A stretch of DNA of 64,000 bases from the NCBI GenBank assembly GCA_030950485.1, contig JAUZRK010000001.1, positions 103,998 to 167,997 of the forward strand, given 5' to 3'. The translations under genes were made by a program, and so were the position numbers. Below, piece by piece: positions 2,922 through 45,281 of the stretch. Below the pieces are notes generated by a model, which was not told where the DNA came from, ran no database searches, and was given only the letters and a program-made list of their open reading frames with translations. This stretch comes from Candidatus Dojkabacteria bacterium (GTDB lineage: Bacteria; Patescibacteriota; Dojkabacteria; J137). The stretch's first letter is position 1. Every line of letters begins with the position of its first letter.

Positions 2922-3284
2922 ATGGTGGACTTTACAAAACTAAACATCTGGATTCGTGCTAAGAATTTATCCGTTGAGATATATAGACTTACAGATGATT
3001 ATCCTAAAATAGAACAATTTGGCATCTCAAATCAAATGAGGCGAGCAGCGACTTCAGTTCCAGCAAATATATCTGAAGGGTGTAGCCGGGATTCTAAAAA
3101 AGATTTTTCTTATTTTTTAAGCATAAGCATTGGTTCACTAAATGAGATCTATACTTTTCTAGAAATCTTCTCAGATCTGAAATATCTACAATTAAGCAAG
3201 AAGAATACACTTATTAAAGAAATTAATGAACTTAAAAGCATGATCTATTCTTATAAAAAAAAACTTAAGACTAAGGAGTCTTAG
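2922..3284 (+). CDS. four-helix-bundle protein (23S rRNA intervening-sequence protein family)
   Basis: 120 aa, residues typical of TIGR02436-like proteins (..GSLNEIYTFLEI..); paralog at 43322-43687. Confidence 0.6.
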   Translation: MVDFTKLNIWIRAKNLSVEIYRLTDDYPKIEQFGISNQMRRAATSVPANISEGCSRDSKKDFSYFLSISIGSLNEIYTFLEIFSDLKYLQLSKKNTLIKEINELKSMIYSYKKKLKTKES

Positions 3285-7700: not shown

Positions 7701-8911
7701 CTACAGATTAACCAGTCTTATTTTCTCACTCCCATAATACTCCAAATCATACTTAGGTGTTTTATAACCAGGCAATCTCCACTCCTCCAATTTCTCTAGA
7801 TCTGCTTTACTAAGCTTAAAATTAACCGCATCAATGTTTTCTTTAAGATGAGAAATATTAGTTGATTTTACAATCGGCAATACCCCTTTATTTACTAAGT
7901 AATTGATTGCAATTTGAGTTGTCGTCATCTTGTATTTATCAGCAAGCTTATTTAGAACTTTGTCTTCTGTTCCTGCAAAGTAACCCATTCTTAATGGCCT
8001 ATATGCTATTACTAAGATATTATTTTTGTTACAAAAATCTACAACACCGCTTTCTTCTGAGGTTCTTACCACTAAATTATAATGAGTCTCATTTGCAACA
8101 ATTCCATGTTTAGTATATTTCAAAGCTTCTTTCATATGATTAACTGAGAAGTTACTTACAGTTATAGATTTGATTTTCCTGAGTCAACTAATCTATCTAA
8201 TTCTTTAAACATTTCTTCAAAACCCATTTCTTTCGCTAGAGCAGGGCTATGGATCATGAACGAATCTAAATAGTGTGTATCTAGAATTTCTAAGTATTCA
8301 TCAACTTGTCTTTCTAATTCTTTAACATCTTTAATATTTCTAGCCTTATGCATATTTGTAAATTTCCCATTTATAAATAGTGATTCTCTAGGATAGTCTT
8401 TAATAGCTTTTGCTGTAGTTTTAATTGATTCACCTTGCGAATAATCTAAACAGAAATCAATATAGTTTAATCCCTGACCAATTGAGTATCTTAAAGCGTC
8501 AATTTCCTGAAATTCGCTAGTATATTTATTTTTAAACATATATCCTCCAACGCCCCAAGTACCTATCCCCATGGCTGATATATCTTGTCCATTCAACTTC
8601 AACCTTGGAAACTTATTATTTGGACCATAGTACGTAGAGCTTCTTTCCCAAATAAAGTCGTACATACTTTTTAAAAGTTCTACAAAGAACTTATTTTTTA
8701 TTGTAATAACAGTGTAATCTCTAAATCCGTTATCTTTTGTTATTATTATTGTATTGTCAAAGATCATCAATTCTACACCAGTAAAAATATTGTGAGGTGG
8801 GACTCGCACTTCTTTAAATAAAGATTCAGAAGTATGTGCAATATCTGACGCACCATAAGGTTTAGCCATAGGAATCAATTGATGTAGGTATACCTTTTTA
8901 TCTAACCTCAT
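7701..8911 (-). pseudogene. aldo/keto reductase disrupted by a 1-nt frameshift in an A-run (ORFs 8162-8911 and 7701-8135)
   Basis: N-part has IGTWGVGG and ends VDSGKSNL*; in the -1 frame the text continues KIKSITVSNFSVNHMKEAL.. (AKR SNFS motif) into the C-part ORF; shift at ggaaaatcaaa (+ coords about 8171-8180). Confidence 0.7.
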
Positions 8912-8980
8912 CTTTAAGTATCCTTTTAAATATTTATAATGAGATTCATCATCATAAACTCTAGATTTTGTATTAATTAT

Positions 8981-13865: not shown

Positions 13866-15593
13866 CTAGTGCTTACTCGCCTCCCACAATCTTTGATAAA
13901 CTTCATTATTCTTAATCAGCTCATCGTGATGTCCAGTACCAATAATCTCCCCTTTATCCATTACAACAATCCTATCAAAAAATGGTCCAGAGGAAATACG
14001 ATGAGTAATTGCAATCATCGCTGTGCTATGAAGTTCAGATAATGATTTGTAAATATTCTTCTCCGTAACTGTATCTAAACTTGCAGTAGCTTCATCTAAA
14101 ATTAGAATCTCCGGCTTAGTAACCAGAGCTCTAGCAATACAAATTCTTTGTGTTTCACCACCGGAGAGTTGTTTCCCTTTACTTCCTATAAGCTGATGGA
14201 TTCCGTCTTCGTACATTGAAATAAAATTCATTGCATCAGAGAGCTCCAACGCATCAACAACTTCTTTATCTGAAAGATCAATGTCACTAACTAATTGCAG
14301 ATTATCCTTAATGCTCCTACTTAATAGCTCATTTGCTTGAGGTACTACTTTTATATTCCCAAGTAATGAATCATTCTTAATATCTAATACATTTAAATCA
14401 TTTATATTTATCACTCCATCGTCTGGAAGATATAATTTCATTAAAAGCTTTGTTAGGGTAGATTTACCAGACCCAGAAGCTCCAACTATAGCGAGTTTCT
14501 CATTCTTATATATGTCTAGATTTATATTATTAAGTATTTTAGTACCTTCTAAATATGAAAAGTTAATTTTATTAAAGTTAACTTTTGTCCATTAACTGGG
14601 AAAATCTTTATCTCCTTCAGGAATCTTCCTCCCTATTTTAAAGATAGAAGATATTCTTTGTAATCCAGTTACGTTCTCTACTAAGTTTTCATAATCAGTC
14701 CAAACATTTGATGCTCTTGAGGTAATCTTTGTATAGTAAGCATATAATGTTACAGCAACATCAATATTCATATTCCCCTCAATAGCCATATATGCAACAA
14801 AAGCAAGTACTATAACTTCTGAAAGATCCAGCATTAAACTTTGAGATGCAGATGTAATTCTCTCAAACCTCCTTAATACTCTAGTACTATCAATGACTTT
14901 TTCATAAGCACTATCTAGATTTTTAAGTAACTTTGAAGTGATATTTAAAAACCTTACAGTTTTAATTTTTGAAGTAAACTCAAAAAGACTAGAATAGTTA
15001 TTTTCTTCCTCTTTTTGTAGTTCTAAATTAAGTTCTTGGTATTTTCTTGCATTTCTATTTACTGATAGAAAAAAGAAGATTAATATTATTATCGACCAAA
15101 TCCCAACTCTAACATCGAATAGCATTAATAAAATTATTGAGAAAAATAATTCTGCTACTCTTTGAAAAGTTGCAGTAAACATAATTTTCAAAATCATCCT
15201 AACTGCTTTAGATCCCAAGGATATTCTTTCTAGATAGCCTCCCTGAGCTTCATTTTCATGAAAGTCATAATCTAAAGTAAATAAATACTGTAGTGCAAGA
15301 ATTCTAGATCTATTTCTAATATATTCTGAAAGTACTTTTGTTTTATAAGCAACTATATTTCTTATTACTGTGACCAATACTAAGCTAATAGCTGTCAAAG
15401 CTATCATCTGGTAAATATTATCAAAATTCTCATTTGCAAAACTTCCAACAATCTTACCGTATAAAAAAGGTGGGATCATTGCAATTAAAGACACTACTAT
15501 AGTAACGCCAAAGTAAAACAATAATTTCCTTTTATATCCTTCTGTAAAAAAGGACATGTCTTTTAAAACATTTTTAATAGGGTAGTGCTGCAT
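13866..15593 (-). pseudogene. ABC exporter (TMD-NBD fusion, MsbA-like) interrupted by an in-frame TAA at 14592-14594
   Basis: TMD ORF (14592-15593) and NBD ORF (13866-14441) are in one frame. The 150 nt between them read WTKVNFNKINFSYLEGTKILNNINLDIYKNEKLAIVGASGSGKSTLTKLL (Walker A). LSGGETQRICIARAL signature and DEATASLD Walker B lie downstream. Confidence 0.8.
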
Positions 15594-15603
15594 TTATTTT
15601 TAA

Positions 15604-16095
15604 CTAAATATATTCATTTAAATCATTAATCTCTATACTATGTTTGATTATCTCATCTTGAAAGCTCTTATAGAAATTAAAATTCAAGCTATCATTCTCA
15701 AACTCAAGGTATTTCCCAGATTCGTCATAGTTTAACTTAAGCACAGTCTTGTTATCAATATTCCAGAAATCTATTTTTGGTAAATCTAATTGATTAAATT
15801 CGCTATCCATTATAATTTTTATATCATCTCCGTATTTCTTCGCTACTTTAAAAACTTCGATTTCAAATTTTGTATAGTCATTAATTGGGAGTGTAACTAA
15901 TCTAACTCTTTTTGTAGAAACTCCACCTTTATTCTTTGATTTTAAGAAATCGAACCATTCAGCATTATCAGTCATATCTACTTTACCAGTCTTAAGATAT
16001 TTATCTAAACTTTCTTTATCTTCAGATAAGTATTGTAAGCTCTCAAATCTAAAAAGAGATTTCTGTGAATTTTTTAAATATTCAAATAGTTCCAT
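15604..16095 (-). CDS. hypothetical protein
   Basis: 163-aa ORF, no motif. Confidence 0.4.
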   Translation of the reverse strand: MELFEYLKNSQKSLFRFESLQYLSEDKESLDKYLKTGKVDMTDNAEWFDFLKSKNKGGVSTKRVRLVTLPINDYTKFEIEVFKVAKKYGDDIKIIMDSEFNQLDLPKIDFWNIDNKTVLKLNYDESGKYLEFENDSLNFNFYKSFQDEIIKHSIEINDLNEYI

Positions 16096-16117: not shown

Positions 16118-17194
16118 CTATAAATATTCATCCATTCCCCTTTTCTTTAACTCATCTAAGATTTTCTTAATATTTCCCACCCTATCTTTAGTTGTAACTA
16201 AAAGAGCATCTTCAGTATCAACAATAACAATATCCTTAAGCCCTAAAGTTGCAATCAACTTCTTTTTCTTTCCCTTTATGAGAACATCTTTAGAATCAAT
16301 ATTAATAATATCTCCATCTAAATAATTCCCATCATCAGCGGAAAAGAACTCAGAAATACTTCCCCAAGCTCCAATATCTTTCCATTTAAACGGAGTCAAA
16401 ATAACATAACCTTCCTTCATGGAATGACTAATAACTTCTCCTGTCATTCCTGGCTCCATTTCTGAATAAACTTTATCTGTTAACTCATCTTCATTCTCCA
16501 ATCCAAATGTAGCCTCAATCTTCATTAAATCTTCATACCAATTAGGTTTATATTTCTTATAATCATTTAATAGCAAGCTTGGATACCAGCACGTGTGGTT
16601 ACAGTGTGTAGAAACTCTATATTTTTCTACAAGTTCTTTAGTTTGCTTATAATCTCCGAGCCTATTTATAAATCTATTTACTTTAAAAACCTCAATATTA
16701 TTTTCATTCATAATCGAATCGCCGAGTTCCATATAATCACTTCCCATATCCGGATAAATCGCTTTCTGACCAGCAGTTTTAAATTTCTTATCTCTTCTTA
16801 CAAGTTTTTCTGCAAGAGCTATCATATCTAAAAATCTTTCTTCAGGTACCCTAAAATCATCAGATTGAACAAGCATAAATGGTTCGTCGTCTGTAAGATG
16901 CATCAATTTCAGAAAAGCAAAACCTTCTCCTGGACCTCTATTTTTCTGATAATCAGGTTCATAAATAATATTTTCCTTTGGGATCTCGTTAGCTTGTTCA
17001 TCAATAAAGTTTTTATATCTTTTTTTAGTTGATATAAAAATATCAGCTGGTGAATAAGCTTTAAGTAAAGTTTTAATTTGATATTGGAATAATGATTCGT
17101 TACCTATTATTTTCTAAAACTGCTTTGGAGCTGAGACTCTACTGTAAGGCCAGAGTTTGGTTCCTTGTCCTTCCGCTACTATTAATAATTTCAT
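16118..17194 (-). pseudogene. mannose-1-phosphate guanylyltransferase-like sugar nucleotidyltransferase with an in-frame TAG at 17114-17116
   Basis: Upstream of ORF 16118-16906, the same frame reads MKLLIVAEGQGTKLWPYSRVSAPKQF*KIIGNESLFQYQIKTLLKAY.. (GxGTRLWP nucleotidyl-transferase motif). The C-terminus has the ManC-like KDIGAWGS. Confidence 0.75.
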
Positions 17195-21890: not shown

Positions 21891-22484
21891 ATGTCTATAA
21901 ACGAAAAAACTCTAGAACAACTCTTTGTTTCAAAGGTTAGAATTAAAGCGCTTAGATACTTTATGACTAATCCTACAATATCTATTCATCTTAGAGGAGC
22001 TGTTAGGGAGTTTGATGAAGAGATTAATGCTGTAAGAAGAGAACTAATGAGATTAGAGACTGTTGGACTAATAAAAGTAGAAACTAAGGGTAATAGAAAA
22101 TATTTTAAGTTAAATATAAATCATTCTTTAGTAGATGAATTAAGTAATTTAATTCATAAAACTTTTGGTTTAGGAGGAGAGATTACATCCCAAGCAAGTA
22201 AACTTGGTGATATTAAATTTGCATTCTTAACTCCATCTTTTACAAAAGGTTTTCAGTATGGAAACCAAATTATTGACCTTGTTCTTATAGGTACAGTAAA
22301 TATGAACGATTTAAACAAAATAGTAAAAGTACAAGAAGATGCTACCGGTAAAGAAATACACTATACTGTAATTAGTAATACTGAATTTGATCTAAGAAAA
22401 AGAAGAAAAGATAACTTTTACACAGATTTAATTGAGCAAAGTCTTGTAATGTTAGTAGGAAAACAAGAAGACCTTATCTCATAA
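21891..22484 (+). CDS. hypothetical winged-helix protein downstream of recA
   Basis: N-terminal HTH-like IKALRYFMTNPTISIHLRGAVREFDEEINAVRRELMRLETVGLIK. Confidence 0.4.
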   Translation: MSINEKTLEQLFVSKVRIKALRYFMTNPTISIHLRGAVREFDEEINAVRRELMRLETVGLIKVETKGNRKYFKLNINHSLVDELSNLIHKTFGLGGEITSQASKLGDIKFAFLTPSFTKGFQYGNQIIDLVLIGTVNMNDLNKIVKVQEDATGKEIHYTVISNTEFDLRKRRKDNFYTDLIEQSLVMLVGKQEDLIS

Positions 22485-26326: not shown

Positions 26327-27520
26327 TTATTTTTTATAGATTTTAATTGCCCCCTTTAAGCCCTCTATAAGCTTAGCAATGTCTTCCTCGTTATTATAAA
26401 CACTAATACTAGCTCTTAAACTTGCAGGAACATTTAGCACGTCTCTATGCAGGATCTGGGTACAGTGATGTCCTGCTCTTACACAAATGTTTTTCTCTCC
26501 TAAGTAAGCAGATATATCATGTGAATGAATTCCTTCAATATTAAAACTAACTACAGCTAGAGCCTCTTTACCTGTAACATTTTTAGGATGATATATTTCT
26601 ATATTCTCAATTTCATCTAATCTTTCTAGTAAATAAAGTCTAAGCCTTTCTTCACTTAGCTTTATTTCTTCAAAACCAATACTGTCAATAAATCTTACAG
26701 CTTCTGCAAGTGCTATCGCTGCTGCTATATTAGGTGTACCAGCTTCAAATTTTGTTGGACCGCTTGCGTAGGTAGAACCGTTCCGTGTTACTTCATCTAT
26801 CATTCCTCCACCTAGCTTAAATGGATTTAGTTCTTTCATAATCTCTTCTTTTATATATAGAACACCTATTCCCGTTGGGGCAAACAGTTTATGTCCCGAG
26901 AAAGTTAAGAAATCTACATCTAAATCTTTGACGTCTATTTTCATATGCGCTATTGATTGAGTCGCATCTATAATTGAGTAGGCATTTTCATTAGAAGTTA
27001 TTATCTCTTTTATCGGTATTATTGTTCCAGTAACGTTACTGGCATGAATACTTGCAAAAATGTCAGAATCTTTGAATATCTTTGTATCATTTATTAAGTA
27101 ATTATCATCTAATCCTAAATATTGAATCATTTCTGGCTGTAAGTCCTGCCATGGTAGGACGTTAGAGTGATGTTCAAGATCTGTTAATGTGATTTTTGGA
27201 GGAACATTGATAAAACCACTTGAATAAAGTGATCTAGAAACTCCGTTAATTGCCTCTGTTGCGCCAGATGTAAAGATTATTTCATTAGGTTCCGCATTTA
27301 TAAATTTAGCAATTGTCTCTCTTACTTTTTCATATTCATCTGTGGCTTTTTCAGAAAGAGGGTAGAGTCCCCTATGAACATTCGAATTATATTCCGTATA
27401 AAATTCTACTAATTTATCAATTACTACTTTTGGTTTTTGAGAAGTAGATGCACTGTCTAGATAGACAAGTCCTTTATTTTTAGAAAAAATTGGGAATTGA
27501 TTTTTTATATTATTATTCAT
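26327..27520 (-). CDS. sufS: cysteine desulfurase SufS/CsdA-type (class V aminotransferase)
   Basis: PLP-lysine motif TFSGHKLFAPTGIGVLYI; C-terminal active-site Cys region HHCTQ. Confidence 0.75.
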   Translation of the reverse strand: MNNNIKNQFPIFSKNKGLVYLDSASTSQKPKVVIDKLVEFYTEYNSNVHRGLYPLSEKATDEYEKVRETIAKFINAEPNEIIFTSGATEAINGVSRSLYSSGFINVPPKITLTDLEHHSNVLPWQDLQPEMIQYLGLDDNYLINDTKIFKDSDIFASIHASNVTGTIIPIKEIITSNENAYSIIDATQSIAHMKIDVKDLDVDFLTFSGHKLFAPTGIGVLYIKEEIMKELNPFKLGGGMIDEVTRNGSTYASGPTKFEAGTPNIAAAIALAEAVRFIDSIGFEEIKLSEERLRLYLLERLDEIENIEIYHPKNVTGKEALAVVSFNIEGIHSHDISAYLGEKNICVRAGHHCTQILHRDVLNVPASLRASISVYNNEEDIAKLIEGLKGAIKIYKK

Positions 27521-36520: not shown

Positions 36521-37234
36521 ATGGAAATACAAAAATCAATAAATAAAGTTTTTATAGTAACAGCAGTCTATGTTGTTGGAATTTCTGTATTTTTAGCAAA
36601 TGTAACTTCTACAAAAGATAATAATAATGATTTCATTTTTGCAAATGATTCAATTTCTAAAAATAATTTAGATGGTACAAATGAAGAGATAGTCAAAGAA
36701 GAAATCGCTAACCAAGAAGATGTCATTGAAGATGTATTAACAAATGCAGTTGTAGACATAGAGTCTTTAAAGGATTCAAGTTTAAAATTAGAAAAATGCG
36801 GACTTTCATTTAGTAATATTACAAATGAACTAGATTCCAAGATACTAGTTACTCCATATAGAAATTTCTTTGGCAACAGATTAGAAGGCGCAAGAATCTT
36901 CCAAACAAAATCGGACGGAATAGAACTTCAGAGAGAGATTCTAGTTGAATGTGTAAAGACTAAAGATGATCTTGTAAGCTTTTATAAAAAAGTAATCTTA
37001 GAAATTAATAATGGTCAAAGTTATAGCTTTGAAAGCTTAAGTCCTGACACTAGATTCATTCTTACTGATCACATTGCGCTAAAATATACATTAGCTTCTA
37101 ATTCAAATACACCTGAATATTTAATAGTTTTTAAAAATAAAGCTACAGGAATAGGATATGTAATGAGAGTAATAGATAACTCTGATGATAAGAAAATTAT
37201 TGATAATATTATTTCAAGTATTGAGTTTATATAA
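36521..37234 (+). CDS. hypothetical secreted protein
   Basis: N-terminal TM/signal segment. Confidence 0.4.
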   Translation: MEIQKSINKVFIVTAVYVVGISVFLANVTSTKDNNNDFIFANDSISKNNLDGTNEEIVKEEIANQEDVIEDVLTNAVVDIESLKDSSLKLEKCGLSFSNITNELDSKILVTPYRNFFGNRLEGARIFQTKSDGIELQREILVECVKTKDDLVSFYKKVILEINNGQSYSFESLSPDTRFILTDHIALKYTLASNSNTPEYLIVFKNKATGIGYVMRVIDNSDDKKIIDNIISSIEFI

Positions 37235-38570
37235 TGAAGAAGTTTCCGAAAAACTTTCTATGGGGTTCAGCAACTGCAGCTTATCAAGTTGAGAGCAATA
37301 TAGAGAATAATTGGACCGCGTATATTCAGACAAGTGCACAACATAAAGCTAAAAATGCAAAAGAAGATCTTAAAAAACAAACTAACCTTTACGGTGAACT
37401 TAATAAAGTTACTCTAGATAGAATTGAAGATGATATTGATGATGTAGCTAATTATATTCCCAATGTATCAATTTCTCATCAAAAAAATTATAAACAAGAT
37501 ATAGCGCTAGCTAAAAGTTTAAATCATAATTCGTATCGTTTCTCACTTGAATGGGCAAAGATTGAACCTACAGAGGGGAATTACAACCAAGATGCAATAG
37601 AGCATTATCGTAATGTAATTAAAGAGCTTAGAGAAAATGATATAGAGCCTTTAGTTACTTTAGTACATTTCACTCTACCAAAATGGTTTCAAGATAAGGG
37701 AGCGTTTGAAAATAAGGATAATATAAAGTACTACTTAAAATATGTAAAAGAGTAGTTGGAGAGTATAGTGATGTTAATTATTGGATTACTATTAATGAAC
37801 CATTAATTTATACAATGGCGTCCTATCTTGCAGGGGTTTTCCCACCTAATAAATCAGTAGGTCTCTACGGCGCTTTCAAAGTCATTAAGAATCTAGCAAG
37901 AGCACATATTGAAGCTTACAAAGAAATCAAAAGTATTGATAATACAAAGAAGGTCGGAATTTCTAAAAATACAGTGTCTTCTAAAGTAGATAAGAGGTCT
38001 TTTATATTCTGGCCTCTTACTAAATTCCTAGATTATACTTTCAATACTTATTTTGTTAGTAAAACTAAAAAGCATTTAGTTTTCTTAGGTCTTAACTATT
38101 ATTATCTAGTTTACGGTAGGTTTAGTAGATTTATTAACTTAATTAAAATCTTATTCTTTGGAAGCGAGCCCGACCCATTCTCGAGCAGGCATTTAGAAGA
38201 TCCTGATATTATTGGTACTTCGGACATGGGTTGGTATTTGTATCCTAAAGGAATGTATGAAAGAGTAATGTTTTATCATAAAAAATATAAGTTACCTATT
38301 ATGATTACGGAACACGGACTCGCAGACAAGGAGGATCGAATACGATTGGAATATACTAAACAATCTCTTGAATATTTACATCAAGCTATAACTGATGGAG
38401 CTGAGGTTTTAGGATATATGCATTGGTCTTTGTTAGATAATTTTGAATGGGATAAAGGATATTGGCCTAAGTTTGGGTTAGTTGAGGTAGATATAAAAAC
38501 AGGAGAGAGAAGAGTTAGAGAGAGCGCTAAGAAAATTGGAGAAATTTATAAAAATAACTACATAGAATAG
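37234..38570 (+). pseudogene. GH1 beta-glucosidase split by a 1-nt deletion near 37749-37753
   Basis: ORF1 has YRFSLEWAKIEP and ends YYLKYVKE*. The +1 frame continues KRVVGEYSDVNYWITINEP (acid/base NEP), joining ORF 37815-38570, which has the nucleophile ITEHG. Confidence 0.7.
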
Positions 38571-38635: not shown

Positions 38636-39262
38636 ATGATTGAAATTGAAAAGAGAAGTCTAATTGATAAAGTTAAATTTAACCAATTTAGATCCGAATT
38701 AAGAAAAATTTCAGACGAATCTGTTCAAAAGAGATTTACAGTAGTTTTCGTCGAAAGAGAGGATTTCGTACCTGATAAAAATGCTACTAATGATTTTAAA
38801 TTACGTACAATTAATGGTACGGGAGAGCTTGTATTAAAACAGGGGAATTGGCACAGTAGTTCTGAGAGAAAAGAATTCACAGTAAAATATGACGTCTCAA
38901 CATTTGGGGACTTATTGCATATGCTAGTTGCTCTTGGCAGAAAATACGGAGTAACTACTTACGTTAATAGATATAAATATATAATCGGAGATCTTACTAT
39001 TACTATTGATTCCTACGATTTAATGAGTGACTACTGGGTTGAGATCGAGAAAGTGGTTATGGATGGTGAAGATACTACGGCTGCTAATTCTGAAATTGAT
39101 GCGTTTATGCAAGAATATAATCTCGACTTTTTAGATTCAAAGGGAACTGTTGATTATATTACTAAAATGAATAATCAAGAAGAAAGAAGAGTTTTATTTG
39201 ATAAAGTAGATATTCAAAAATGGGTAGAGGAGAGAATTGATTATATTAATGGACTAAAATAA
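38636..39262 (+). CDS. CYTH-domain protein (triphosphate tunnel metalloenzyme / CyaB-like)
   Basis: N-terminal ExExK motif MIEIEKR. Confidence 0.55.
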   Translation: MIEIEKRSLIDKVKFNQFRSELRKISDESVQKRFTVVFVEREDFVPDKNATNDFKLRTINGTGELVLKQGNWHSSSERKEFTVKYDVSTFGDLLHMLVALGRKYGVTTYVNRYKYIIGDLTITIDSYDLMSDYWVEIEKVVMDGEDTTAANSEIDAFMQEYNLDFLDSKGTVDYITKMNNQEERRVLFDKVDIQKWVEERIDYINGLK

Positions 39263-43321: not shown

Positions 43322-43687
43322 CTAAAGGTTCTTAGACTTAACTTTTCTGTAAATTGAGTTTAGTATTAAGTTCAATTCATTTGCTTCTTTCCATAAGACT
43401 CCTATTTCTTTTTTTATGTATGGAACAGCCGTTGCTAACATCCTGAGGTGATGCTTTGTTTCTCTAGCTTCTTTTTTACTGATACCAATTTTATTTGCAA
43501 AGTCTTTAGAACTAACAGCGTCATCAGCCTCTGCATAATTAGCGCCAACACTTGTAGATGACCTGATTAGTTGAGAGATTATAGGTTTAGAAATAATATC
43601 TACACTAATTCTCTTACACATTAAGATTACATTTTCTCCAAATTTTGCCGTTCTTTCCTCAAGGTTATACTTTTCTTTATTTTGCAT
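43322..43687 (-). CDS. four-helix-bundle protein (23S rRNA IVS family), second copy
   Basis: ISQLIRSSTSVGANYAEADDAVSSKDFANKIGISKKEARETKHHLRML typical of this family. Confidence 0.6.
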   Translation of the reverse strand: MQNKEKYNLEERTAKFGENVILMCKRISVDIISKPIISQLIRSSTSVGANYAEADDAVSSKDFANKIGISKKEARETKHHLRMLATAVPYIKKEIGVLWKEANELNLILNSIYRKVKSKNL

Positions 43688-43763: not shown

Positions 43764-45281
43764 TCACCCTCCAATCTCAACCCTATAACTCAACGCCTCC
43801 ATTACTTCAGTTTTAGTAATTTCTTTTGAGCCATTTAAATCAGCTATTGTTCTCAATACTTTTAAAAGTCGATAGTAAGATATAGCACTTAAGTTCATTT
43901 TATTAACTGCTAGTTTAAGAATATCTGTGGTTTCTTCATCAAGTTTTATAAATTCCTTAAGTTCTTTTCCATTTAAATCTGAATTAGAAATGATAGAGGG
44001 GTAGTTATTATATCGAGTAATTTGAAGGTTTCTAGCTTTTAGGACTCTCTCTAATTGACTCAGAAGATTCAGAAGAGCTTTGAGAAAAGAGTTTCTCATT
44101 CTCTACTTTCGGAACATTGATCAATAAATCTATTCGGTCCAGAATTGGCCCTGAGAGACGCTTTAAGTACCTAGCAGATTCCATTGGATTACAGCTACAT
44201 TCTCTAACAGGATCTCCTTTATAACCACATTTACAAGGATTCATTGCTGCTACTAATGTAAAGTTCGCAGGAAATGTTAAAGATCCAGAGGCTCTAGAAA
44301 TTGTGACAACTTTATCTTCAAGGGGCTGTCTTAGTGCTTCTAATGATTTAGAAGAAAACTCTGGGAACTCATCAAGGAAAAGTACTCCTCTGTGTGAAAG
44401 AGAGATTTCTCCTGGTTTAATTTGTCCTCCACCTCCGACTAGCGCTACTTGCGACGAAGTATGGTGGGGACTTCTAAATGGTCTGTCTTTAATAAGTGGT
44501 TCTTCTTTTGAAGTAAGGCCACATACGCTATAAATTCTTCTAATTTCTAATGATTCATTCGTGGTTAGTTCAGGAAGTATTGATCAAAAGCATTTAGAAA
44601 GCATAGTCTTTCCAGATCCAGGAACTCCCGACATTAAAACAGACCTCCTGCAGCTGCAATTTCCAAAGCTCTTCTCGCATGTTCCTGGCCTTTTACCTGG
44701 GCGAAATCATAGGCATATTCCTTAATCTTTTGCTTCATGTCTTTCTCTTTTCTTTGATAGACAGGTATTTCAGTTATTCCATCAAAATGATTCAATATTT
44801 CTTTTATAGTATTAACTCCATAAACTTTAATTCCAGAAATTAGGGAAGCTTCATCTGCATTTTCAATAGGAAGATATATCTCCTTATAGCCAAGCTTATG
44901 AATAGCATCAGCAATTGGCAGTATCCCTTTTACTGGTCTTAACCTTCCATCGAGTGCAAGCTCTCCAATAAATAGTTTATCTTTTGTATTAAAGTGAATT
45001 TGTCTTGAAGCTAGTAAGTAACCGAGGGCTAGCGGAAAATCGTAACTTGGACCAGACTTATTTAATTCTGCAGGCGCTAGATTCATAATTATTTTCATTG
45101 GAATAAACTCAGCTCCTGAGTTTATTATAGCCGACGGTATACGATCATTCGCTTCTTGAATAGATTTATCAGCAAGCCCTACAATTGAGATATGTGTATT
45201 TCCTTTCCTATAATCAACCTCAACTTCAACGATTTTACAGTCTAGACCAACAAGAGCTGCGGTATATAGTTTTGCAATCAT
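43764..45281 (-). pseudogene. comM: Mg-chelatase-like ATPase ComM/YifB with multiple frameshifts and an in-frame TGA (44584-44586)
   Basis: N-terminus MIAKLYTAALVGLDCKIVEVEVD..EIAAAGG, then the frame shifts to VLMSGVPGSGKTMLSKCF*SILPELT.. A further shift precedes NPCKCGYKGDPVRECSCNP, and another precedes the C-terminal domain ORF 43764-44099. Confidence 0.8.

Follow-up and report, generated by a model that had tools for sequence, protein, structure and literature searches.

A single in-frame TAA at the TMD-NBD junction of a Dojkabacteria ABC exporter gene, probably a young pseudogene

Introduction

Can an ABC exporter gene that is interrupted by one in-frame stop codon, just where its transmembrane domain (TMD) passes into its nucleotide-binding domain (NBD), still give rise to a transporter? 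The question is raised by a locus on the minus strand of a 64,000-nucleotide stretch of Dojkabacteria DNA, hereafter the window, to which all positions refer. GenBank carries the locus as two coding sequences, one for each domain. An initial annotation had instead read the two as one gene split by a single TAA, and had suggested that two polypeptides might still be made if an internal start codon were used. Here we ask what the locus encodes, whether any start codon, readthrough or recoding could restore a complete transporter, and whether the stop codon is genuine.

Results

One exporter frame interrupted by a single TAA

Translation of the minus strand of 13866-15593 gives one 575-codon frame consisting of 333 codons, a TAA, 241 further codons and a terminal TAG (Table 1), which bears out the initial annotation in that the two open reading frames are one and that the TAA is its sole break. 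The codons around the stop are GAT TTT CCC AGT TAA TGG ACA (DFPS*WT), and the frame continues as DFPS*WTKVNF. In profile searches, residues 24-288 of the first part match ABC_membrane (PF00664, profile positions 1-268 of 274, E 2.4e-16), the TMD of type IV half-transporters, while residues 20-170 of the NBD frame match ABC_tran (PF00005, E 8e-33). The ABC_membrane domain of type IV exporters comprises six helices. When the two parts are joined, with an X placed at the stop, the resulting 575-residue protein matches full-length fused exporter models, among them TIGR01846 (E 3e-77), in a single ungapped stretch (residues 20-572). Its residues 16-571 also align to residues 8-574 of Sav1866 (PDB 2HYD), and the structures of HlyB and BmrA align too. 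The ungapped TIGR01846 match and the Sav1866 alignment put the identity of the locus as one exporter frame far beyond chance.

The TAA sits in the linker between the two domains. NBD alignments to ABCB1 and ABCB4 begin at query residues 336-337, i.e. the stop lies 2-3 residues ahead of NBD strand β1, and the earlier description of a break at the TMD-NBD junction is accurate. In an alignment with homologs, the stop falls in a linker column that varies (S/K/T/N/K/E/N/D/H). The exporter keeps every one of the 41 columns found invariant when it is aligned with nine homologs (10 sequences), and most of these columns lie 3' of the stop. The A-loop aromatic residue, Walker A, Q-loop, signature, Walker B and H-loop are all read in frame, Walker A being intact as had been reported. 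No second lesion was found within the 1,725 nt of the exporter. Given this, and the 41 of 41 invariant columns retained, the proposal that the event is recent is plausible.

Table 1 Features of the exporter locus and of other genes in the window
Feature	Positions	Strand	Remarks
TMD part, 333 codons	14595-15593	-	ATG at 15591-15593; PF00664
GenBank CDS of TMD part			MDQ6984792.1 / MDQ7021022.1, 'ABC transporter transmembrane domain-containing protein'; exact product in two NCBI MAGs
In-frame TAA	14592-14594	-	TTA on + strand; next base T (TAA-T)
NBD frame, 241 codons + TAG	13866-14591	-	PF00005; first 50 codons without ATG, GTG or TTG
A-loop Tyr (Y347 of joined protein)	14553-14555	-	invariant in family alignment
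ATA start of 219-aa GenBank CDS (NBD codon 23)	14523-14525	-	MDQ6984791.1 / MDQ7021023.1, 'ABC transporter ATP-binding protein'
Walker A GASGSGKST	14457-14483	-	invariant columns G371-T379
First canonical start, ATG (M51 of NBD frame)	14439-14441	-	3' of Walker A
Q-loop Q	14337-14339	-	read in frame, intact
ABC signature LSGGETQR	14145-14168	-	read in frame, intact
Walker B ILILDE	14091-14108	-	read in frame, intact
H-loop H	14001-14003	-	read in frame, intact
DUF6879 gene	15604-16095	-	PF21806, E 1.9e-26; directly upstream of exporter
ManC-like nucleotidyltransferase	16118-17194	-	in-frame TAG 17114-17116 (PKQF*KIIG); heads the gene string
ComM/YifB-like, Mg-chelatase family	43764-45281	-	two frameshifts and in-frame TGA 44584-44586
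Family 1 glycosidase (GH1)	37234-38570	+	frameshift near 37745, A4 run where A5 is expected
Aldo-keto reductase	7701-8980	-	frameshift near 8165, A4 run where A5 is expected
IscS	26327-27520		397 aa in window, 66 + 177 aa in JAUZSD010000008.1
EamA			305 aa in window, 262 aa in JAUZSD010000008.1
MFS			400 aa in window, 344 aa in JAUZSD010000008.1
DUF4153 protein			485 aa in window, 376 + 105 aa in JAUZSD010000008.1

In domain order, one ABC_membrane (PF00664) domain followed by an NBD, the exporter resembles Sav1866, BmrA, MsbA and HlyB without its C39 domain, and it shares with type IV half-transporters the A-loop Tyr, Walker A, Q-loop, LSGGQ-type signature, Walker B, D-loop and H-loop. Unlike Sav1866, BmrA, MsbA and HlyB, it carries a TAA ahead of the NBD and is not encoded as one polypeptide. 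By score it falls into none of the named subfamilies (HlyB T1SS, MsbA, PglK, CydDC, bacteriocin ABC), staying below the curated NCBIfam cut-off in 25 of the 25 models listed, and far below it even in the best, TIGR01846, with 260 bits against a cut-off of 726. That the ManC-like neighbour might point to a glycoconjugate or lipid-linked substrate is speculation.

No canonical start codon that would yield a complete NBD

The initial annotation had described a 50-codon bridge after the stop, and indeed the first ATG, GTG or TTG is the ATG at 14439-14441; none of the three occurs in the 50 codons in between. Its further suggestion, that a second polypeptide might start at this methionine, does not hold: the product would be 191 residues long and would lack both the A-loop Tyr347 and Walker A, and because the start is 3' of both, it could not bind ATP. 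A restart at the overlapping TAATG was also considered and rejected, the ATG being out of frame and its open reading frame ending after 4 codons.

The 50-codon lead does contain near-cognate codons, ATT at codon 9 (14565-14567) and ATA at codons 19 (14535-14537), 23 (14523-14525), 27 and 35. Any start from codon 19 onward loses the A-loop Tyr and strand β1. This includes the ATA from which GenBank begins its ATPase: an exact look-up of the sequence M+NLDIY... confirmed a 219-residue product devoid of strand β1 and of the invariant Tyr347. The ATA is a gene-caller choice and does not in itself show that initiation occurs there. Thus, the NBD frame was not found to have a start of its own 5' of the A-loop and Walker A.

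Initiation signals do not single out any of these codons. A check for a ribosome-binding site before 14441, which had been recommended, turns out to be uninformative, Shine-Dalgarno motifs being practically absent from the starts of the window. Even GGA precedes just 2 of the 46 well-defined starts (positions -20 to -4, 17 nt scanned), and therefore the organism does not use Shine-Dalgarno sites. The regions 5' of window starts are A/T-rich, several with TATAAT-like hexamers 5-15 nt ahead of the ATG. Such A/T-rich start regions devoid of Shine-Dalgarno sites suggest leaderless or Shine-Dalgarno-independent initiation. Nor was an internal promoter apparent between 13700 and 17400, where we counted 14 promoter-like sites against the 18.8 expected from shuffles.

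These observations bear on whether the locus could be functional despite its stop, either as two polypeptides through non-AUG reinitiation at the ATT (14565-14567) or at an ATA (14535-14537 or 14523-14525), as the GenBank annotation of a 219-residue NBD implies, or as a full-length protein through UAA readthrough. Full conservation of the NBD frame after the stop is in keeping with this, and in an organism that initiates without Shine-Dalgarno sites the start-site rules differ from those of E. coli. We nevertheless judge it very improbable: starts at codon 19 or later sacrifice the A-loop Tyr and strand β1, the ATG at 14441 sacrifices Walker A as well, a canonical start has not arisen, and the relatives are not split.

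Readthrough, recoding and the genetic code

At the position of the stop, orthologs (none more than 48% identical) carry sense codons. Since the stop occupies a variable linker position, at which any amino acid would be tolerated, trace readthrough would be expected to give an active protein, but nothing points to readthrough above background. UAA followed by U is a strong terminator context, +4U lowering readthrough in bacteria (PMC5289835), and it is a normal one in the window, where TAA-T accounts for 11 of 60 stops. Around the stop, a 151-nt stretch (from 29 nt before it to about 120 nt beyond it) folds more weakly than its shuffles (z = +0.97), giving no indication of RNA structure after the stop, and no tRNA gene, hence no suppressor tRNA gene, was found within the 64-kb window. 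Neither a leaky context nor a stimulatory RNA structure is thus present, and neither promoter signal above chance nor tRNA gene lends weight to a locus that functions through its stop.

The chance that TAA has been reassigned to a sense codon in this organism is close to negligible. Stop usage in the window is unusual for a 31% GC genome (30 TAA, 28 TAG and 6 TGA among the 64 open reading frames of at least 120 residues), and three genes contain in-frame stops, both of which could hint at a deviant code. But TAA is itself the terminator of 30 of these 64 long frames, often with the next ATG 1-6 nt further on (22482-22484 then 22488; 39260-39262 then 39266), each of the three in-frame stops is a different codon, and coding density is high under the standard code. 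TGA is likewise still a true stop, as RecJ (74-1798) terminates at one.

Relatives encode both domains in one protein

The closest homolog is P0001, a fused protein of 579 residues that is 47-48% identical to the exporter and is encoded among other neighbouring genes, on a contig of 33% GC. The TMD part is 47.7% identical, without gaps, to P0001 residues 1-333, and the NBD frame is 48-49% identical to the NBDs of P0001-P0003. P0002 (593 residues, 39% identical) is fused too. In a word-index protein search, 120 of the 120 homologs among the matches listed have both domains in one protein. This search omitted the window's own 333- and 219-residue products, although both are in the collection, and so the absence of close matches in it is not proof. 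The 333-residue product was found clustered under an unrelated 47-residue representative (P0122).

The TMD was therefore used as query in a second, exhaustive search for orthologs, in which HMMER scanned 1.84 billion cluster representatives. At E<=1e-30, 6 of these matched, P0001 again being the closest. With so few representatives at this threshold, the exporter clade is small and rarely sampled. No ortholog closer than 48% was found in the word-index and exhaustive protein searches, and contig scans of GTDB species representatives and JGI metagenomes returned no other copy of the exporter locus.

We looked for TMD-only proteins that might represent a natural split. Several hits of 360-380 residues were rejected: all of them run into NBD strand β1, and the closest of them (P0130) is truncated by the end of its contig. 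Among relatives, a natural split at the TMD-NBD junction was not found, and the division is not a conserved one. The comparison with orthologs that had been called for therefore returned fused, uninterrupted relatives alone, and no split. In passing, the loci of P0002 (23% GC, from a 1.02-Mb contig) contain a HerA-like gene that is intact at 742 residues in one sample and falls into 350, 205 and 96 residues in another (2623-4849 in L002 versus 2620-4848 in L003), a strain- or assembly-level breakage.

The same stop in two assemblies

Exact-protein look-ups led, for every window protein queried, to one and the same contig, JAUZSD010000008.1 of GCA_030949735.1, another GenBank assembly from this Dojkabacteria population. 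As protein records, the products belong to two NCBI MAGs of 'Candidatus Dojkabacteria bacterium', with contigs of 70,790 and 179,567 bp. We compared JAUZSD010000008.1 with window positions 1-55281. Over about 55 kb, the two are 99.9% identical, with 34 differences; 9 of these are substitutions and about 24 are indels, most of which fall in homopolymer runs. Because the differences are mostly homopolymer indels, both look like long-read assemblies. Eight of the differences crowd within 27038-27434. At each difference checked within a window open reading frame, the longer frame is that of the window (IscS, EamA, MFS and the DUF4153 protein in Table 1), which makes the window the cleaner of the two. 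Between 12758 and 17020 there is no difference at all; the two assemblies agree over the entire exporter, and with it over the TAA.

Premature stops and frameshifts are known consequences of long-read errors (PMC12007338), and it must be asked whether the TAA is a consensus error shared by both assemblies, the organism itself having an intact fused exporter. Such an error could take the form of a systematic substitution, for example at a methylated site, or of a compensating pair of run-length errors that turned CCC AAG TTA TGG into CCC AGT TAA TGG. The latter has some appeal, since the AAG TTA reading (PKLW) restores the K of the DFPK found in P0004, P0011 and P0013 (DFAK in P0014). Errors of a related kind are plainly present, as the mostly homopolymer indels and the IscS gene, which is split in only one of the two assemblies, demonstrate. 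They may also be shared: the protein accession numbers of the two MAGs are close together, from which a single submission batch is presumed, and a systematic basecalling or polishing error could then be common to both. The exporter, moreover, shows no other decay.

However, the site has no homopolymer, and either a substitution or two nearby short-run errors would be required. Only 9 of the 34 differences between the assemblies are substitutions, a rate (9 in 55 kb) at which a random error of this type is rare, and yet the TAA is called in both, which makes a shared random substitution error very unlikely. On balance, we regard a shared consensus error as unlikely, while giving it appreciably more weight than a functional locus. 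The absence of other decay in the exporter does not discriminate, being as much to be expected of a very recent mutation as of a sequencing error.

Other broken genes in the window

The exporter closes a minus-strand gene string in which a ManC-like gene is followed, after a 22-nt gap, by the DUF6879 gene and, after a further 10 nt, by the exporter. The product of the first gene, which we take to be of the GDP-mannose pyrophosphorylase type, is itself interrupted: its TAG falls inside PKQF-L, a motif that is conserved. In the joined protein, residues 4-130 match PF00483 with the stop in between, and PF22640 is matched too. A T7/T6 homopolymer difference between the assemblies lies at 17020 in the same gene.

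Further away, the ComM-like gene carries three lesions. One of its two frameshifts stems from an (AG)n repeat near 44050 that has lost 2 nt, and the TGA of the gene is embedded in TGATCA; once repaired, the protein matches Mg_chelatase (PF01078) end to end (E 1e-88). Genes of the 23S_rRNA_IVP-type four-helix bundle (PF05635) occur at 2922-3284 (+) and 43322-43687 (-).

Four genes besides the exporter, namely the ManC-like, ComM-like, GH1 and aldo-keto reductase genes, are broken identically in both assemblies. The A4 frameshifts of the GH1 and aldo-keto reductase genes could reflect systematic homopolymer under-calling or real slippage mutations; as A5-to-A4 contractions common to both assemblies, they indicate that residual errors can be shared, and to that extent they favour a consensus error in the exporter also. 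The remaining lesions point the other way. The three in-frame stops of the window (TAA, TAG and TGA) have no sequence motif in common, as a single methylation-linked error would require. In addition, the lesions are clustered, with three in the ComM-like gene and two nonsense codons in the ManC-DUF6879-exporter string; by a rough estimate, a single 1.5-kb gene would receive three of the seven lesions by chance with a probability of about 0.03. Clustering of this kind follows a first inactivating hit, and is thus expected of real decay and not of random error.

The presence of two more in-frame stops within 30 kb of that of the exporter could also be taken to favour a functional locus. In its broadest form, the proposal would be that a CPR bacterium without Shine-Dalgarno sites tolerates or exploits in-frame stops, the exporter being made either as a non-covalent TMD + NBD pair, by reinitiation at a non-AUG codon after termination, or as a full-length protein by UAA readthrough; the same tolerance would then account for the TAG of the ManC-like gene and the TGA of the ComM-like gene. 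We consider this very improbable, slightly more so than a functional exporter taken by itself.

Discussion

The exporter is probably a pseudogene that arose by a recent, genuine nonsense mutation. Its ancestor would have encoded a homodimeric type IV (ABCB-like) half-transporter, with the TMD preceding the NBD, before a single TAA arose in the linker just ahead of the NBD. The ancestral codon was probably one substitution away, i.e. CAA, AAA, GAA, TTA, TCA or TAT/TAC. As encoded, translation would end after residue 333 and leave a membrane domain with no ATPase, and with no usable NBD start retaining both the A-loop and Walker A, the outcome would be a non-functional transporter and a young pseudogene. 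The gene is disrupted where its homologs are intact, and no route to a complete product was found. We infer that the population does carry the stop in its DNA and that translation yields nothing past residue 333.

A pseudogene created by a single nonsense codon is an ordinary kind of event. Like other bacterial pseudogenes of this type, the exporter combines a premature stop with intact homologs, no compensating start and disrupted accessory genes nearby; unlike typical ones, it does not yet show secondary decay. Gene fragmentation in long-read assemblies offers a second parallel, homopolymer indels there splitting genes that annotation then presents as two coding sequences (PMC12007338), but the break in the exporter is an in-frame stop outside a homopolymer and is the same in both assemblies. 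A third parallel is with natural two-gene ABC systems, such as importers and type V ABC-2 exporters, which the GenBank pair of a TMD and an NBD coding sequence resembles. Importers and type V ABC-2 exporters use other TMD folds. In such two-gene systems the NBD genes have their own starts and complete NBDs, whereas the NBD of the exporter has no canonical start before Walker A.

One accessory exporter is probably dead in one uncultured Dojkabacteria population, which carries little biological weight; if the several disrupted accessory genes are real, they would speak for ongoing gene loss in the lineage. Both MAGs carry long-read-type errors, and inferences from them about gene content or split genes need read-level checks. 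For annotation, a single gene with an internal stop would describe the locus better than two coding sequences, the second of which begins in GenBank at an implausible ATA and so loses the A-loop tyrosine.
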